In this document: one piece after another, positions 9,416-16,125 of the stretch | Layout of the letters: every line of letters begins with the position of its first letter | Numbering within the stretch: the first letter of the stretch is position 1 | Assembly (NCBI GenBank): GCA_038046605.1 | Contig: JBBSVW010000078.1 | Span: forward strand, 1 to 30,576 | Direction of reading: 5' to 3' | DNA from: Candidatus Micrarchaeota archaeon | Lineage (GTDB): Archaea > Micrarchaeota > Micrarchaeia > Norongarragalinales > SBBD01 | DNA: 30,576 nucleotides | The notes under the pieces: generated by a model | What the model was told of the DNA's origin: nothing | What the model saw: the letters and a program-made list of their open reading frames with translations, nothing else | Databases searched by the model: none | Program-made: the position numbers and the translations under genes

Positions 9416-11602
9416 ATGGCACGAAAGGAAAACATTGCGGCGGAAGCGCAAAAACTGATGGGCAATAGGGCAAATATCAGGAACATGGGGATTGTTGCCC
9501 ATGTCGACCATGGAAAAACCACATTAAGTGACTCATTAGTTGCACTAGCCGGCCTCATTTCGCAGGAATTGGCAGGGGAGCAGCGCATCCTTGATTACGA
9601 TGAGCAAGAGCAGGCACGTGGGATTACCATCAAGGCGGCAAATATTTCAATTCCTTATGCGTACGAAGGCCAGTCCTACCTAATTAATCTCATCGATACG
9701 CCCGGCCACGTGGACTTTGGAGGCCACGTTACAAGGGCAATGCGCGCAGTTGACGGCGCCGTTGTTGTCATCGATTGCGTTGAAGGCATCATGCCCCAAA
9801 CCGAAACCGTGCTCCGGCAGGCGCTCAAGGAAAAAGTCAAGCCAGTCCTGTTCATCAATAAAATCGACCGCCTGATCAATGAGCTCAAGCTGGATCAGCT
9901 CCAGATGCAGCAGCGCTTCCTCAAAATCATTACCGGCGTAAACAAGCTTATCACCACCTTTGGCCCCGATGAATTCAAAATCCCCTGGCAAATTGATGTC
10001 AATAAGGGAAATGTCGCATTCGGCACGGCCTTTAGCAAATGGGCAATTTCCGGCAAGCAAATGAAAAAATCCGGATTGACCTTCAAGGATATCTATCAGG
10101 CATGCGTGGATGGAAAGCATGCGGATTTGCAAAAGAAAATACCACTTGGGCCTGTCATGATGGATATGATCATTAATCACCTTCCAAACCCGCTTACCGC
10201 GCAAAAATACAGGGTGCCGGTCATATGGCATGGCGATTTGGAATCAGATCTTGGGAAAAGCATGCTTAATGTTGATCCTGCAGGCAAGGCGATTTTCATG
10301 GTCACGGCAATTCAAAATGACCCCCACGCCGGCGAAGTGGCAGTTGGGAGGCTATATTCCGGAACTTTAAAGAAAGGATCCGACCTTTACCTTGCATCCC
10401 AATTCAAGAAGGAAAAATTGCAAAGTGTAGCCGTATACATGGGCCCCGATCGCGTCACAATCGATGAGGTGCCTGCAGGCAACATTGTTGCGCTGGTTGG
10501 TTTGAAGGAGGTCTATTCAGGGGAAACCGTTTCAGAAGAGCCAATTACGCCCTTTGAGCAAATCAAGCACCACTCGGTTCCCGTTGTCACAAAGAGCATT
10601 GAGGCGAAAAACCCACGGGATCTTGTAAAATTAGTGGAGGCCATGAAAAAGCTTGCAAAGGAGGATCCCACCATGAAGCTTGAGATCAACCAGGAAACTG
10701 GCGAGCATCTGATTTCCGGCATGGGCGAACTTCATCTTGAGATCATCGAGTATAAATTGAAAAACGAACAGGGTGTTGATATTGTCACATCGCCTCCAAT
10801 TGTGGTCTATCACGAGTCAGTATTTGGTGAATCCCCCGAATTGGAGGGAAAATCCCCAAACAAGCACAACAAGTTCAAAATACTTGTGAGCCCAGTTGAG
10901 CCAAGTGTCATTGCCGCAATAAACGATGGTACAATTGACGAGCACAAGAAAGGAAAGGAGCTAATTGAGCTTTTGATTAAGGCGGGCCTTCCCCGTGATG
11001 AGGCAAAATCAGTAATGACAATCCACAACGGCAATTTCTTCCTTGACATGACCAAAGGAGTGCAATATTTGGTGGATATCAAAGAAGCCCTTATCACCGC
11101 ATTCGAAGAGGCGGTGGAACAAGGGCCGCTTGCAAAGGAAAAGTGCATCGGCGTCAAGGTAATCCTAACGGATGCAACGATCCACGTCGATCCGGCGCAC
11201 AGGGGGCCGGCACAACTGTTCCCGGCAATCAAGCGCCCTATTTATGCGGGCATGTTGATGGCCAAGTGCGCACTCCTCGAACCCAAGCAAAAGCTAGTTG
11301 TGAATTCGCCAGCTGATTATTTGGGGAACATTACCATGAAAGTGCAGGGCAGGCGTGGGCAAATTGAGAACATCGAGCAGGAAGGCGAAGTTGTGAATGT
11401 CACTGCCAAGGTGCCGGTTGCCGAGATGTTTGGCTTTGCAAATGAGATCCGCGGCGCAACCCAAGGGAGGGCCGCCTGGTACTATGAATACGCCGGATAT
11501 GAGAGGCTCAACCCCGATCTGCAGGCAAGGATACAGGCGCAAATCCGGAAGCGCAAAGGAGAGCCGGAGAACGCTCCGACTGCAAAGGATTTCCTCGAAT
11601 GA
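9416..11602 (+). CDS. fusA: Archaeal translation elongation factor EF-2
   Basis: AHVDHGKTT, RGITI, DTPGH, NKID, GMGELHL motifs and the HRG diphthamide loop; 728 aa. Confidence 0.98.
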   Translation: MARKENIAAEAQKLMGNRANIRNMGIVAHVDHGKTTLSDSLVALAGLISQELAGEQRILDYDEQEQARGITIKAANISIPYAYEGQSYLINLIDTPGHVDFGGHVTRAMRAVDGAVVVIDCVEGIMPQTETVLRQALKEKVKPVLFINKIDRLINELKLDQLQMQQRFLKIITGVNKLITTFGPDEFKIPWQIDVNKGNVAFGTAFSKWAISGKQMKKSGLTFKDIYQACVDGKHADLQKKIPLGPVMMDMIINHLPNPLTAQKYRVPVIWHGDLESDLGKSMLNVDPAGKAIFMVTAIQNDPHAGEVAVGRLYSGTLKKGSDLYLASQFKKEKLQSVAVYMGPDRVTIDEVPAGNIVALVGLKEVYSGETVSEEPITPFEQIKHHSVPVVTKSIEAKNPRDLVKLVEAMKKLAKEDPTMKLEINQETGEHLISGMGELHLEIIEYKLKNEQGVDIVTSPPIVVYHESVFGESPELEGKSPNKHNKFKILVSPVEPSVIAAINDGTIDEHKKGKELIELLIKAGLPRDEAKSVMTIHNGNFFLDMTKGVQYLVDIKEALITAFEEAVEQGPLAKEKCIGVKVILTDATIHVDPAHRGPAQLFPAIKRPIYAGMLMAKCALLEPKQKLVVNSPADYLGNITMKVQGRRGQIENIEQEGEVVNVTAKVPVAEMFGFANEIRGATQGRAAWYYEYAGYERLNPDLQARIQAQIRKRKGEPENAPTAKDFLE

Positions 11603-11676
11603 GGCTTCTCCATTTTTACTTATTTCCTAGCCCTACTTTTTTCTATTATTTAATTACAGGATTACACATACCTGTT

Positions 11677-11706
11677 CAAAACCAAATAGCACACAAAACC
11701 AAATAG
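11677..11706 (+). repeat. 13-bp direct repeat CAAAACCAAATAG x2
   Basis: Copies at 11677-11689 and 11694-11706, just upstream of an AT-rich TATA-like element. Confidence 0.7.
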
Positions 11707-11753
11707 TCAATGAATAAATATCTGGACAGTCTTATCATTTTTCAGGTGAATAT

Positions 11754-11960
11754 ATGCCAAAACCCAAATCAAGGAAAATGGAGGCGATTGACGGCTACAG
11801 GGCGCGAAGAATAAGCCTCGAAAAATCCGCAAGGCTTGCCGGAGTGAGCGTGAGTGAAATGATGGATTTACTTTCAGAATATGGAATACCCTCGAATGTT
11901 ACCGTTGAGGATTTCGAGGCGAGCTTGAGGTCGGTTGAAAAGATAAGGCCTTTGAAATGA
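11754..11960 (+). CDS. UPF0175-family small HTH protein (antitoxin-like)
   Basis: Pattern Y....ISLEKSARLAGVSVSEMMDLL...GIP; AGGTGA RBS. Confidence 0.75.
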   Translation: MPKPKSRKMEAIDGYRARRISLEKSARLAGVSVSEMMDLLSEYGIPSNVTVEDFEASLRSVEKIRPLK

Positions 11961-11985
11961 TGTGATGCCCCCGGATTATTTCGAT

Positions 11986-12162
11986 CTAATCCTTCTCGCC
12001 ATCGGCGCCGCATTTCTTGCATCGCCATATTGGGGAATAAGCCTCCCGTTCGCACCCCCCAATAATGATTTTGCCTTCCTCCGCCGCCTTCAGCATGCTT
12101 TCATCGGGCATCCCGTACTCTATCCGAACCGCTTCCATGGAATTGCATTTAGGGCATTTCAT
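11986..12162 (-). CDS. 58-aa zinc-ribbon microprotein (not in ORF track)
   Basis: Manual translation MKCPKCNSMEAVRIEYGMPDESMLKAAEEGKIIIGGCEREAYSPIWRCKKCGADGEKD; two CxxC pairs; ATG overlaps the LemA stop (ATGA). Confidence 0.85.
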   Translation of the reverse strand: MKCPKCNSMEAVRIEYGMPDESMLKAAEEGKIIIGGCEREAYSPIWRCKKCGADGEKD

Positions 12163-12716
12163 ATCATCTTCACCTCAACATTCTTCCTTTCCGCATCACT
12201 CGCCCCAAAAAACCCCCTTTTCCCAAAATCACCAATTCCGGCTACCAAATTCCATGGGAATATCTGGATGGAATTGTTGTAATTCATGGCCGTATCATTG
12301 TAAAAGCCCCGGGAATAAGCAATCCGTTCCTCTGCATCGGAAATCTCATCTTGCAGGTGTAAAAAGCTCTTGTTAGCCTTCAATTCCGGATAATTCTCTG
12401 CGACCGCAAATACCGACCTAACCGCCCTTACAATTGAGTCATTTGCCTTTGAAATCTCCTCCACTGATTTCGCGTTTTCGAACCCACTGCGCGCAAGCGT
12501 CACCTTCTCAAAAACCGATTTCTCATATTTTGCATATCCCTTCACGGCTTCAACCAGATTGGGGATCAGATCATTCCTCCTCTTCAATTGTATGTCAATT
12601 TGCGACCATGAATCATTGCAGCGCTCCCTAAGCTGTATTAGCCGATTGAAAATAATTGCGGCTGCTAGGGTAAGGAGCAAAATCCCAGCGCCAATTGCAA
12701 ACACAAAAAAATCCAT
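12159..12716 (-). CDS. lemA: LemA family protein
   Basis: N-terminal TM, then WSQIDIQLKRRNDLIPNLV, AENYPELKAN, YN...YN and FPWNLVA motifs. Confidence 0.95.
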   Translation of the reverse strand: MDFFVFAIGAGILLLTLAAAIIFNRLIQLRERCNDSWSQIDIQLKRRNDLIPNLVEAVKGYAKYEKSVFEKVTLARSGFENAKSVEEISKANDSIVRAVRSVFAVAENYPELKANKSFLHLQDEISDAEERIAYSRGFYNDTAMNYNNSIQIFPWNLVAGIGDFGKRGFFGASDAERKNVEVKMI

Positions 12717-12740
12717 ATTTTTTCGCCTCTCAATTTATTT

Positions 12741-13535
12741 TTACCTGACCATTGACCAAATCAAAACCAATATTCCGCCAATCAAAAGCCCATAGCTGAA
12801 TATTGTCATTGGCTTGTCATCTGAACGCATATGCTTAAAATATTCCTTTTCCCCCCGAAAGCTTGCAACAAGGGGCTCATCCTCGCTTTTTGCAATTACT
12901 AATTTTCCGTCAATTTTTTTGGTTTTCCCAATAATAAGAAGCTTTCCTGCGGGCAAAATCCACTCGTACGTGCGGCTATGCATATCCGTAAAGCTCCCGA
13001 TTGTATCCACCTCCTTTCCATCAATGTGCTCTGCCAAAACACCCTCCAAATCAACGGCAATTTTGCCAGTCCCGTCATCAATCTCAAAGGGCTTTGTTGT
13101 TATGCGGTCCTCCACCGTTTTCCAATGGCCGCCTTCCCGCGACTTGAAAGATCCACTTTCGACATACTCTTCCCTAACACTCCTTGCCCAAACACAATCC
13201 TGCTTCGAAAACGGGCCCTCAAAAGGCTTGCTTGAAACCTTGCCTGATATTTTAAGCAATACCCCCTCGTTTGCATCCTCGATTTCCGTTGGCGGGATCT
13301 TTTGCACCTTATAGAGCAATTTTTCCTCATCCCTAGTGCTTTTCATCATGACAAGCCCGGCAATCACCAATATTATACCAAATATCGGGAAGATGTAGCC
13401 TGCAAATGTTATTCCAAACGGCCTAAAAAATGATTTGTCGAAGTAATCCATAATGAATAGCATAACCCCGATAATCACAAGTACCAGCGCCGTCGAGAGC
13501 ACGATTCCGATGTTGCGCCTAGTTGATGGTTCCAT
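12741..13535 (-). CDS. GIDE/BAM-domain membrane protein (3 TM)
   Basis: Two N-terminal TMs, then KISGKV, CVW, PFEIDDGTGKIAVD and YEWILP motifs, then a C-terminal TM. Pattern of the MUL1/SP1 GIDE domain; no RING. Confidence 0.8.
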   Translation of the reverse strand: MEPSTRRNIGIVLSTALVLVIIGVMLFIMDYFDKSFFRPFGITFAGYIFPIFGIILVIAGLVMMKSTRDEEKLLYKVQKIPPTEIEDANEGVLLKISGKVSSKPFEGPFSKQDCVWARSVREEYVESGSFKSREGGHWKTVEDRITTKPFEIDDGTGKIAVDLEGVLAEHIDGKEVDTIGSFTDMHSRTYEWILPAGKLLIIGKTKKIDGKLVIAKSEDEPLVASFRGEKEYFKHMRSDDKPMTIFSYGLLIGGILVLIWSMVR

Positions 13536-13540
13536 ATTTC

Positions 13541-14239
13541 TCAGCCCGGCCAGAAAAACGAGGCCACAATCAGGATTGCGCCAACCACTGCAATTGCATA
13601 GCCGACAAACACCTGTTTTTTATCGTCAGTTCGCTTGTTTTTGAGGAAAGTTTTTTCATCATTCACGCTTGCTGCCATTTCGGATTCCTTCCATTGCCGT
13701 AGTTCCATGGCGCCGTTGAATTTGCGGGGCATCCCATAAATAAACATTTTTCCATCCGAAGGGATGATCCATTCGTATTTCCTTACCTTCAAGCCCCCGA
13801 TGTTGAATGGCCCAAACTGCCCAAGCCCCCCTTCGTATCCTTCCCAATTGAGGATTTTTTCCGTTTCCAGGAATTCTTTGTTCGCTGTGTGCAAATCAAT
13901 CCTGATCTTGCCTGTGCCATCATCGAGGTAAAAGGGCGAGTCCTGGAAATCATGCAATGCAGTTACCCAATTCGAGCTCTTTCCTTGCTTCTTCAATTCC
14001 TGCCTTTCCGAAATGAAATAAACGCAGCTCCTTCCCTCAAACCTTGATTTCAGCACCTCAATAGGTACCACTTTCCCGGTCAATTTGATTGGGACTCCCT
14101 CTATGACATCCTCGAGCTGGATCGGCGGCGTGCGCTCTATCCTATAGAAGAATTCGTCCTCCTTTTGCTGGCGTTTTATTGCAAAGGCGCCAATTGCCCC
14201 GATTATGAGGCCAAATGCGGTCAATTGAAATAGGACCAT
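13541..14239 (-). CDS. GIDE/BAM-domain membrane protein (2 TM)
   Basis: TM, then KLTGKV, GRSCVY, PFYLDDGTGKIRID and YEWIIP motifs, then TM. Clear paralog of the adjacent gene. Confidence 0.8.
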   Translation of the reverse strand: MVLFQLTAFGLIIGAIGAFAIKRQQKEDEFFYRIERTPPIQLEDVIEGVPIKLTGKVVPIEVLKSRFEGRSCVYFISERQELKKQGKSSNWVTALHDFQDSPFYLDDGTGKIRIDLHTANKEFLETEKILNWEGYEGGLGQFGPFNIGGLKVRKYEWIIPSDGKMFIYGMPRKFNGAMELRQWKESEMAASVNDEKTFLKNKRTDDKKQVFVGYAIAVVGAILIVASFFWPG

Positions 14240-14298
14240 ATATGGGTAACATTAGTGCTCAATAAATATCTATCATCCGTGGAAAAAAATTAGTTTTA

Positions 14299-14601
14299 TC
14301 AGCCCAGATTCATCTCAAGCGAGACGGTCTTTGGGATCTCCATCCTCATGACATCGCGAAGGACGCGGTCGTCCGCCTTGATTTCCATCAGGCGCTTGTG
14401 GATGCGGCATTCCCACTTTTCATAGGTATCGGAGCCATCCCCGCAGGGCGTTTTCCTGGTTGTAATTGCAAGCCTCTTGGTCGGCAGCGGAATAGGGCCC
14501 TTTACCTCGACTCCGGCCTTCTTGGCAATATCCTTGATCTGCGAGCATACGCCATCCAAATCAGCGTAACTGCGGCTTTCCAGCTTGATTCTTGCTTTCA
14601 T
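14299..14601 (-). CDS. rpsJ: 30S ribosomal protein uS10
   Basis: KARIKL, GPIPLPTK, TTRKTPCGDGS and RIHKRL motifs. ATG at 14601; alternative GTG at 14610. Confidence 0.97.
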   Translation of the reverse strand: MKARIKLESRSYADLDGVCSQIKDIAKKAGVEVKGPIPLPTKRLAITTRKTPCGDGSDTYEKWECRIHKRLMEIKADDRVLRDVMRMEIPKTVSLEMNLG

Positions 14602-14820
14602 AATGAACACGCGAAAATGAATTGTTGATAATTGTTAAAGCGATTTTTGACTCCTTTTAAACCAAGAGTCCATTCAGTTGAATCCGCTAATTTATATTAT
14701 AATATCATAAGCGAATGGCCTACTTGACAACCTGGTGCGTAATTTTAATACGGACCAACTCCTCTTTTGGCCATCCGGCTCATGAAAACAATTATAAAAA
14801 ATAAAAAAATTTCGATTCGC

Positions 14821-16125
14821 CTATGCCGCATTCTTCCTTGGGACGACCTCCAGGACAATTCCGGCGGCTACTGTTTGCCCCATATCCCTGATTGCAAACC
14901 TGCCAAGTGCCGGGAACTCGCTGTACTTTTCGACGACTGTAGGCTTTGATGGTTTTATCCTGACAATTGCAACATCCCCTGTCTTGATGAAATCAGGGTT
15001 CTTCTGCGCTGTCTGCACAGTCTTTGGATCCTTCTTTTCCAAAATTTCCGTTATCGTGCATGCAACCTGCGATGTGTGCAAATGGAATACCGGCGTATAG
15101 TTCTTCCCAATTGCCGTTGGGTGGTTTAGCACAACGATTTGCGCTGTGAATTCCTCCGCAACTGTTGGCGGGAATTTGGGATCTCCTACGACCGATCCCC
15201 TCCTGACCGCTTTCTTTTCAACTCCCTTGAGGGCGAATCCGATGTTGTCCCCAGGAATTGCCTGCGTAAGTGACTGGTGGTGCATCTCAATTGTCTTGAC
15301 TTCGGCAGTCACGTTTTCTGGCATGATGATTACGGTTTGGCCCGGCTTTAGAATGCCGCTCTCCACCCTTCCGACTGGAACTGTCCCCTGTCCGGTAATT
15401 GTCATGACCTCCTGGATTGGAAGCCGTAGCGGCTTATCTGTAGCCTTCTTTGGCTCAAGCAGCATGTCAAGTGCTTCCTTGAATGTTGGGCCAGAGTACC
15501 AAGGCATGTTGATTTTTTTGCTGGCTGGATCGGGGCCTCCTTCCCGTTGCCCTACATTGTCCCCCATGTAAGCGGAAACCGGAATTACCGGTATCTGATC
15601 TATCTTATAGCCCATGGGCTTGATTTTTGCAATGAGGGCGGCTTTGGTATCCTCGAATTTCACATGATCGTAGTTGACGGCGTCCATCTTGTTGATTGCA
15701 ATGATAAACTGGCTAACTCCAAGCACCTTCAAAAGGAATGCGTGCTCGATGGTCTGCGCCTGCACCCCTTCCTTGGCAGAGCAAACAAGCACGGCAGCAT
15801 CAGCCTGCGAGGCGCCGGTGATCATGTTCTTGACGAAATCCTTGTGGCCGGGCGCATCAATGATTGTGAAGTAATATTTCTGGGTGTGGAAATCGCGGTG
15901 GGCGATATCGATTGTGACTCCCCTCTCACGCTCCTCCTTCAATTGATCCATTGCGAATGCAAATTCGAAGGTCGCTTTCCCATACTTTGCGGCCTCCTCC
16001 TTGAGCTTCCTCAAATCGTTTTCCGAAAGTGCGCCGGTATCGTAAAGCACCCTTCCTACAAGTGTGCTCTTCCCGTGATCGACGTGACCGGTGAAGATTA
16101 TATTCAAATGTGGTTTTTCTGCCAT
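14821..16125 (-). CDS. tuf: Translation elongation factor EF-1alpha
   Basis: GHVDHGKST, ERERGVTID, DAPGH, NKMD and GRFAIRDMG motifs; AGGTGA RBS. Confidence 0.98.
   Translation of the reverse strand: MAEKPHLNIIFTGHVDHGKSTLVGRVLYDTGALSENDLRKLKEEAAKYGKATFEFAFAMDQLKEERERGVTIDIAHRDFHTQKYYFTIIDAPGHKDFVKNMITGASQADAAVLVCSAKEGVQAQTIEHAFLLKVLGVSQFIIAINKMDAVNYDHVKFEDTKAALIAKIKPMGYKIDQIPVIPVSAYMGDNVGQREGGPDPASKKINMPWYSGPTFKEALDMLLEPKKATDKPLRLPIQEVMTITGQGTVPVGRVESGILKPGQTVIIMPENVTAEVKTIEMHHQSLTQAIPGDNIGFALKGVEKKAVRRGSVVGDPKFPPTVAEEFTAQIVVLNHPTAIGKNYTPVFHLHTSQVACTITEILEKKDPKTVQTAQKNPDFIKTGDVAIVRIKPSKPTVVEKYSEFPALGRFAIRDMGQTVAAGIVLEVVPRKNAA

Follow-up and report, generated by a model that had tools for sequence, protein, structure and literature searches.

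A conserved GIDE-LemA membrane module in a Micrarchaeota genome, with GIDE proteins as candidate adaptors of a proposed LemA scaffold

The subject of this report is a cassette of four co-oriented genes in a 30,576-nucleotide (nt) stretch of DNA from a Candidatus Micrarchaeota archaeon (GenBank assembly GCA_038046605.1, contig JBBSVW010000078.1, positions 1 to 30,576 of the forward strand), the whole of which is referred to here as the window. The genes encode two membrane proteins of the GIDE/BAM family (GIDE1 and GIDE2), a LemA protein and a zinc-ribbon protein of 58 amino acids (aa) (Table 1), and the conserved unit among them is a GIDE(n)-LemA membrane module. The source genome measures 1.64 Mb in 106 contigs and is 90.7% complete. 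An original prediction made from the sequence alone had described the four genes as tightly packed, and the list of open reading frames (ORFs) agrees with it at every coordinate: GIDE1 and GIDE2 lie 5 nt apart, GIDE2 and LemA 24 nt apart, and the LemA gene and the 58-aa ORF share a 4-nt ATGA overlap. The cassette is flanked by the genes for elongation factor 1-alpha (EF-1a) and ribosomal protein S10 on the same strand and by a convergent gene for elongation factor 2 (EF-2), all within region 9416-16125 of the window. It interrupts a translation-factor cluster, and this interruption is a spot of local gene gain and loss in the genus. The observed arrangement is beyond chance, because the cassette recurs in the S10/EF-2 slot of four other genomes of the genus (labelled G001, G002, G004 and G005) and because a same-strand LemA gene adjoins GIDE in 67 of 80 distant loci (one genome per species; the best 80 of 220 relatives found through one peptide pattern).

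Table 1. Coordinates of the cassette genes and adjoining features in the window.
Feature	Position	Strand	Size	Description
GIDE1	13541..14239	(-)	232 aa	ORF list and PF12483 match
GIDE2	12741..13535	(-)	264 aa	ORF list and PF12483 match
GIDE-linked LemA paralogue	12159..12716	(-)	185 aa	N-terminal transmembrane helix and cytoplasmic helical domain (predicted); PF04011
Zinc-ribbon protein	11986..12162	(-)	58 aa	CPKC...GGC...CKKC; 5 Cys
TATA-like box TATTTATT	14261..14268	(-)		Read from the sequence
UPF0175 antitoxin-like gene, convergent with the cassette	11754..11960	(+)		PF03683, E 5.3e-13; context only

Both GIDE proteins match Pfam family PF12483 above its cut-off of 23.6 bits (GIDE1, E 3.3e-10, 40.1 bits; GIDE2, E 1.4e-8, 34.8 bits), and a PF12483 profile search of the genome contigs located GIDE at the same two places only. 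They are paralogues with 31% identity. The DDGTGK motif present in both belongs to a nearly invariant F..D.TG block in an alignment of 26 homologues. GIDE1 has hydrophobic segments at residues 3-21 and 210-228 and ends four residues after the last transmembrane (TM) helix, and GIDE2 has an extra N-terminal segment, which brings its number to three (residues 11-29, 44-62 and 245-263), and ends one residue after the last. The original prediction had taken these two TM-flanked DDGTG proteins for GIDE/BAM family members, and the above-threshold PF12483 matches and flanking helices show that they are. A match to an EF-hand family was absent from both proteins at E<=0.1, and DDGTGK is by eye unlike DxDxDG, the canonical calcium-loop pattern of EF-hands. 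When GIDE1 was used in a word-index search, the query alone was returned, which reflects the index and not orphan status.

The fold of the GIDE domain was examined by modelling GIDE1 in AlphaFold2 (AF2) from an alignment of 26 sequences. The model (predicted local distance difference test score 93.9; predicted template-modelling score, pTM, 0.84) has two long helices at residues 2-36 and 195-229 with a beta domain between them (about residues 38-194). A Foldseek comparison of this model with the PDB gave no match at E<=0.001, the high-probability rows being oligonucleotide/oligosaccharide-binding (OB) folds of replication protein A and single-stranded DNA-binding proteins. On structural re-alignment, 48 of the 50 listed rows were OB-fold domains lying on GIDE1 from residues 31-39 to residues 191-200, with 5zg8 (Z 9.4, root-mean-square deviation 3.0, 87 residues aligned) and 3e0e (Z 9.1) as examples. 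The top rows of a wider structure search (VIA) were helical hairpins matching the two long helices only, and a search with the GIDE profile found no solved BAM-domain structure. The GIDE domain is confidently modelled as an OB-type barrel on a two-helix membrane stalk, with no single family assigned as its relative. Its beta domain is not consistently basic (median net charge 0; -2 and -6 for GIDE1 and GIDE2), and the OB fold therefore gives no hint of nucleic-acid binding.

The LemA protein of the cassette matches PF04011 with E 4.3e-54 over profile positions 1-148 of 149, and the LemA profile matches PDB 2etd_A with E 2.6e-51. Its proposed homology to the magnetosome protein MamQ stands in so far as it is a genuine and MamQ-like LemA, but it is not a MamQ equivalog, since it scores 96.8 bits against a cut-off of 250 in the corresponding model (NF040966). 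According to the accessible part of a recent preprint, 13 LemA proteins restructure Escherichia coli membranes and drive vesiculation, and PaLemA1 of Pseudomonas has its N terminus outside and its domain in the cytoplasm, whereas MamQ has the opposite orientation (bioRxiv 10.64898/2026.10.21.759321). The window LemA shares the PF04011 domain with PaLemA1, MamQ and the Thermotoga maritima protein (PDB 2ETD), and its predicted layout of an N-terminal TM helix and a cytoplasmic domain is that of PaLemA1. Unlike these proteins, it is a paralogue dedicated to GIDE in a genome (G000) that has a second, solo LemA elsewhere (210.7 bits; contig C8, L121:3539-5040), located 3' of a same-strand gene for a ParA/MinD-type ATPase. 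LemA was detected by profile search in 59 of the 61 genomes of the order. A tree was made of 35 LemA domains, 20 of them solo and picked across genera of the order, 13 linked to GIDE and 2 fused to it. The 15 associated with GIDE fell into two clades apart from the solo LemAs. The tree required 2 label changes, shuffling of the labels gave 11.6, and a number this low came up in 0 of 500 shuffles, although relatives share labels and the test thus demonstrates clustering and not independent events. Judged from this tree, the GIDE-linked LemAs are dedicated paralogues, distinct from the near-universal solo LemA.

The association of GIDE with LemA is both widespread and tight. Among adjacent pairs in the distant loci, the order is GIDE followed by LemA in 65 and the reverse in 5, with a median gap of 21 nt (62 pairs), and at least two GIDE ORFs are present in 12 of the 80 loci. 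The loci without an adjacent LemA include five with less than 700 nt of downstream flank, one with LemA 1.16 kb downstream and one in which no GIDE ORF was called. Archaeal carriers belong to DPANN lineages, Methanosarcinales and Thermoplasmatota. The bacterial carriers span about ten phyla and are, by their record titles, Nitrospirota, Marinimicrobia, Zixiibacteriota, Omnitrophota, Eisenbacteria, Planctomycetota, Elusimicrobia, Clostridia and Limnocylindria. No conserved third partner was found near GIDE-LemA, the best neighbour cluster being present in 5 of the 80 loci. Among the control genomes of the profile searches, Synechococcus elongatus gave a GIDE match and Methanosarcina acetivorans a LemA match. 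Within the order, a profile search detected GIDE in 22 of 61 genomes, and when the coordinates of both searches were collated, GIDE was adjacent or fused to LemA in 16 of these 22 (G000, G001, G002, G004, G005, G007, G023, G030, G031, G034, G037, G039, G043, G046, G048 and G052). The window cassette resembles these prokaryotic pairs and fusions (PF12483-PF04011) in its families, gene order and tight spacing, and arrangements of several GIDE genes with a single LemA are found elsewhere too. It differs from them in that the GIDE subtype of its genus is divergent and lacks the TPTSK.RS.A.G motif, and in that two genus-old GIDE paralogues precede LemA and a strain-specific zinc-ribbon gene is coupled to it. 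The original prediction had stated that GIDE-LemA adjacency "has been noted". Our literature search found no paper saying so, nor any that pairs GIDE or BAM with LemA or reports a functional study of the pair.

Fusion of the two domains provides information on how they are arranged in the membrane. GIDE-LemA fusion proteins of 454 aa and 442 aa are encoded in two genomes of the order, and a database search with the fusion returned six near-length relatives, five of them with both PF12483 and PF04011; the source databases label the fusions "LemA family protein". Between the domains are two hydrophobic helices joined by a loop of 3-4 residues (PWW or KLPF), and because two helices separate them, the GIDE and LemA domains lie on one side of the membrane. 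Over 49 GIDE sequences, counts of lysine plus arginine (K+R) per 15 residues are 4.00 and 3.45 on the domain side of the two helices, and the outer tails have 0.47 and 0.37. Over 47 LemA sequences, they are 2.11 after the TM helix and 0.09 in the N-terminal tail. From the fusion architecture and the positive-inside rule, the soluble domains of GIDE and LemA probably share the cytoplasmic side. This is where the original prediction had placed both GIDE domains and LemA: the fusions put them on the same side, and the K+R counts make the cytoplasm the probable one.

The composition of the cassette varies from genome to genome within the genus. In the S10/EF-2 slot, G001 has GIDE-LemA-GIDE and a 37-aa LemA remnant, G002 has GIDE-GIDE-LemA-GIDE, G004 has a GIDE, a split GIDE (130 + 87 aa), another GIDE and LemA, and G005 has GIDE-LemA and then, overlapping the LemA stop codon, a gene for a Kunitz-domain protein. 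Two further genus members (G003 and G006) carry a solo GIDE elsewhere. The G001 remnant (L031:7187-7300) corresponds to the LemA C terminus, follows the third GIDE and is a decaying copy. In G004, the middle GIDE (L033:7210-7899) is the one broken into two frames, and a TAG stop lies inside a GIDE match of that genome. The G005 gene (L034:2411-2707, +) encodes 98 aa, in which a hydrophobic N-terminal anchor is combined with a Kunitz/BPTI domain (PF00014, E 2.2e-12), and its overlap with the LemA stop is 4 nt, as for the zinc-ribbon gene in the window. To our knowledge, archaeal proteins seldom contain such a domain.

Rates of change within this neighbourhood are uneven. Identity between the window proteins and their genus orthologues is 90% for EF-2, 89-93% for EF-1a and 90-93% for S10, and it is 67-81% for LemA, 38-39% for GIDE1 and 39-44% for GIDE2. 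By these comparisons, GIDE is among the fastest-evolving genes of an otherwise conserved neighbourhood. In a quick GIDE tree of 54 rows, GIDE1 grouped with copies from G001, G002 and G004 (support 94) and GIDE2 with copies from G002, G004 and G005 (Shimodaira-Hasegawa-like approximate likelihood ratio test, 97). Duplicates in other phyla paired with one another, which indicates that GIDE duplication has been independent and recurrent. It is this combination of recurrent duplication with low identity (38-44% for GIDE, as against 67-81% for LemA and 89-93% for EF-2, EF-1a and S10) that makes the behaviour of GIDE adaptor-like.

The reading that we favour, and which we rate about evenly between right and wrong, is that LemA forms a membrane-remodelling scaffold steered by fast-evolving OB-fold GIDE adaptors. 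What the data show is family membership, conserved linkage, fusions, topology on a common side, the fold, the existence of dedicated LemA paralogues and the rapid divergence of GIDE, whereas binding between the proteins, remodelling of membranes in this organism and the role of GIDE as an adaptor are inferred. The unit would consist of one LemA and one to several GIDEs, all of them membrane-anchored and with the soluble parts facing the cytoplasm. LemA would serve as the scaffold that bends or organises the membrane, a role suggested by what the preprint reports for MamQ and for bacterial LemA proteins. GIDE would use its two-helix stalk to hold the OB-fold barrel close to the membrane and would most likely dock on its dedicated LemA paralogue through neighbouring TM helices and membrane-proximal domains. 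As a fast-evolving adaptor or sensor, it may set where or when LemA acts, and the tandem GIDE1 and GIDE2 could be alternative or mixed adaptors for the single LemA. The 58-aa zinc ribbon would be a recently acquired passenger, co-translated with LemA in this strain only. Of the two roles offered by the original prediction, membrane remodelling fits what the accessible part of the LemA preprint reports, whereas quality control by way of a zinc module or RING is not borne out, as described below.

Such an arrangement bears on both families. The accessible part of an article on MAPL treats the function of BAM/GIDE as an open question (PMC4457424), and in its accessible part the LemA preprint has only just proposed these proteins as general bacterial membrane remodellers. 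Because the two are near-obligate neighbours, sometimes fused, same-facing and co-diversifying, a testable hypothesis can be put forward for both, namely an OB-fold adaptor with a helical scaffold. The GIDE-LemA hypothesis is thereby extended to archaea with minimal genomes.

Several points weigh against this interpretation. The peptide pattern used for sampling is absent from the window GIDE proteins, and the 80 loci are accordingly biased to one subfamily. Six of these loci lack LemA despite full flanks, and in 6 of the 22 GIDE-bearing genomes of the order (G003, G006, G008, G009, G010 and G025) a solo GIDE was found with LemA not nearby. An adjacent LemA is thus not indispensable to GIDE; no neighbour common to the six solo genes was found across genera. 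The AF2 model of the fusion protein has a pTM of 0.57, its inter-domain helices (residues 250-277 and 286-363) are of low confidence, and the two domains show no confident packing against each other. Cytoplasmic placement is a prediction from the positive-inside rule. The OB-fold Z values of 7.4-9.4 fall in the middling range for the aligner, which is why we speak of an OB-type barrel and not of kinship with one family. Finally, the evidence for remodelling by LemA comes from one unreviewed preprint on bacteria, the accessible part of which does not mention GIDE and names archaea in a cited title only (bioRxiv 10.64898/2026.10.21.759321).

The variability of the cassette also bears on the main rival to an adaptor and scaffold, that of a conflict or defence module. 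Here, the variable GIDEs would sense an invader, either a virus or a host/symbiont factor, and LemA would be a membrane-perturbing effector acting in the style of abortive infection or exclusion. In a genus where identity is 90% for EF-2, it falls to 38-44% for the GIDE orthologues, each cassette has 1-4 GIDE-related reading frames (at most three intact), and decaying copies are present as the split GIDE of G004 and the LemA remnant of G001. What follows LemA varies as well, being the zinc ribbon, the Kunitz protein, a third GIDE or nothing, and an antitoxin-like UPF0175 gene lies next door in the window. In addition, overproduced LemA perturbs membranes, according to the accessible part of the preprint (bioRxiv 10.64898/2026.10.21.759321). 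Against a module of this kind stands the location of the cassette, a stable site among housekeeping genes that has been inherited within the genus, away from recurrent defence genes and without conserved neighbours. The cassette is also retained in very small genomes. In a search of PADLOC-DB 2.0 (2023 library) at E<=0.01, GIDE1, GIDE2 and the zinc ribbon matched no model and LemA had only a chance-level Cas9b row (E 0.0093), and our literature search found no paper joining LemA with anti-phage defence systems. We therefore view a defence function as unlikely, though it is the strongest competitor to the adaptor and scaffold that we favour.

A second competitor follows from the fold and layout of the two proteins. 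A TM-anchored OB-type barrel beside a TM-anchored helical protein of the oligomer-forming type, encoded as a tightly coupled pair, recalls the design of NfeD-stomatin (SPFH) operons. By this analogy, LemA would be a scaffold that organises the membrane without bending it, GIDE would be its OB-fold partner, and the two would regulate a lipid domain, a channel or a protease. The listed fold matches contained no NfeD or SPFH chain, which excludes nothing, and no protease or channel gene is conserved near GIDE-LemA. The accessible part of the preprint favours active remodelling by LemA (bioRxiv 10.64898/2026.10.21.759321). A purely static scaffold thus strikes us as improbable, more so than a role in defence.

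We now turn to the 58-aa gene, which is a real gene and probably translated. A 593-nt contig spans the LemA/zinc-ribbon junction among sequencing-run contigs from the probable source study; runs of another study contained short identical pieces only, and such contigs speak neither for expression nor for independent occurrence. The protein has cysteines at positions 3, 6, 37, 48 and 51 and no histidine, and Pfam gave sub-threshold zinc-ribbon matches only, with no RING family at E<=0.1. A full HMMER scan recovered 1234 cluster representatives of its family at E<=0.001; a word-index search had returned the query alone, which, given the HMMER result, reflects the index and not orphan status. Twenty-two relatives align with it end to end at 40-52% identity, and the window protein has every conserved Cys, Gly and Pro residue. 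The family motif is CPxC..I.YG.P..G..GGC..P.W.C..C, no Pfam model covers the family, and fusion partners of its members include ADP-ribosylglycohydrolase, MshEN, TY-Chap2 and DUF6979. The likeness of the window protein to this CPxC...YGxP...GGC...PxWxCxxC family extends over its full length, and among the loci examined the window member alone stands beside GIDE-LemA. Of the 61 order genomes, a profile of the family matched only the one from which the window comes, and the gene, like that for UPF0175, is missing from the same slot of the four other genus genomes. A screen of the 80 distant loci, restricted to small ORFs with two CxxC motifs, found no homologue. The co-occurrence of GIDE, LemA and zinc ribbon raised by the original prediction therefore holds for the first two, which are linked in 67 of 80 loci, and not for the third (1 of 61 genomes and 0 of 4 genus cassettes). 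With one occurrence in 61 genomes, the zinc ribbon is to be placed outside the GIDE-LemA system, and judged by this distribution it is a strain-specific accessory, a recent passenger outside the conserved core. The sole other same-strand zinc-ribbon ORF that this screen found after a GIDE-linked LemA is in Omnitrophota (L102:5510-5812, +); its 100-aa product has a zinc ribbon at the N terminus together with TM helices and is unrelated to the window's family.

The eukaryotic relatives of GIDE are RING ligases, namely the animal mitochondrial outer-membrane ligase MUL1/MAPL/GIDE and, alongside it, the plant member SP1. A RING cross-brace is formed by eight Cys/His ligands. The BAM/GIDE domain bracketed by two membrane helices is common to MUL1/MAPL and the window GIDEs, but unlike MUL1/MAPL and SP1 the window proteins have no RING match at E<=0.1 and stop 1-4 residues after the last TM helix. 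The accessible part of PMC4457424 reports that bacteria and archaea also have BAM-domain proteins, none of them with a RING, that MAPL has its BAM domain in the intermembrane space, across the membrane from the RING and with both termini of the protein cytosolic, and that MAPL is linked to vesicle formation. By contrast with MAPL, the window GIDE domains are predicted from positive-inside counts to be cytoplasmic.

In the original prediction, the free zinc module stood where eukaryotes fuse a RING. The system would then carry out a RING-less, E3-like form of quality control in which the zinc ribbon replaces the RING of MUL1/SP1. The overlap of the zinc-ribbon gene with the LemA stop (ATGA) and its good ribosome-binding motif would suit such a role, as would genes on another contig of the genome for a JAB protease, an E2 enzyme and a ubiquitin-like protein that terminates in GG. 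With five cysteines, no histidine and no RING match, however, the 58-aa protein could not form a RING cross-brace, and its family was found in a single one of the 61 order genomes, is absent from the other four genus cassettes and is promiscuous, being fused to unrelated domains. The E2 enzyme is encoded in 58 of 61 genomes irrespective of GIDE, which is in 22. The geometry also disagrees, since the RING of MAPL is across the membrane from its BAM domain, according to the accessible part of PMC4457424, and a soluble zinc ribbon would share the GIDE side. Models for RING (PF13639) and ubiquitin (PF00240) had no match in the genome, a result made uninformative by the equal silence of the control genomes. 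Taken together, these data remove the tempting analogy between the zinc ribbon and a RING, which we now consider extremely improbable, and a ubiquitin-type quality-control role is not indicated.

The comparison with MUL1/MAPL suggests a broader speculation, which is a long shot. GIDE-LemA could represent, in prokaryotes, the machinery within which the BAM domain of MUL1/MAPL does its work, the ancestral job of BAM having been to dock on and steer a LemA-type scaffold. Eukaryotes would have kept BAM on organelle membranes that form vesicles, replaced LemA and added the RING. In the ultrasmall DPANN archaea, the module might shape vesicles or membrane bridges to hosts.

The ubiquitin-like genes mentioned above form a cluster of eukaryotic type on contig C90 of the source genome (L143:2955-7663), outside the window and unlinked to GIDE. 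The cluster encodes an 83-aa protein ending in GG (weak matches to ubiquitin-like families), an E2 enzyme (UQ_con, 60.5 bits; cut-off 27), a JAB/MPN protease, NurA, and a 367-aa protein with a Cys/His-rich C terminus that is RING-like by eye and has no Pfam match. The E2 family of the 58 order genomes was found in 0 of 14 control genomes. Our literature search found no paper on Micrarchaeota and ubiquitin-conjugating enzymes.

A run of seven T residues (14283..14289) lies 3' of the S10 stop codon and precedes the TATA-like box. The original prediction had pointed to a box about 25 nt before the ATG at 14239, and TATTTATT is found there, at 14268..14261, with its end 21 nt and its centre 25 nt upstream of the GIDE1 start codon. 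Shine-Dalgarno-like motifs are present before LemA (GAGAGG) and 7 nt upstream of the 58-aa ORF start (GAGGTGA), and none was seen before GIDE1 when the upstream sequence was read directly. Since archaeal TATA boxes sit about 26 nt before the transcription start, a leaderless or near-leaderless GIDE1 transcript is plausible. AT-rich boxes also lie upstream of the first GIDE gene in G001 and G004.

Two neighbouring features complete the picture. The UPF0175 gene of the window is solitary, with no toxin partner adjacent to it. An arginine-rich ORF of 205-223 aa with no Pfam match, absent from the window, lies between the cassette and EF-2 in G001 (L031:7304-7921, -) and G005 (L034:2772-3443, -).

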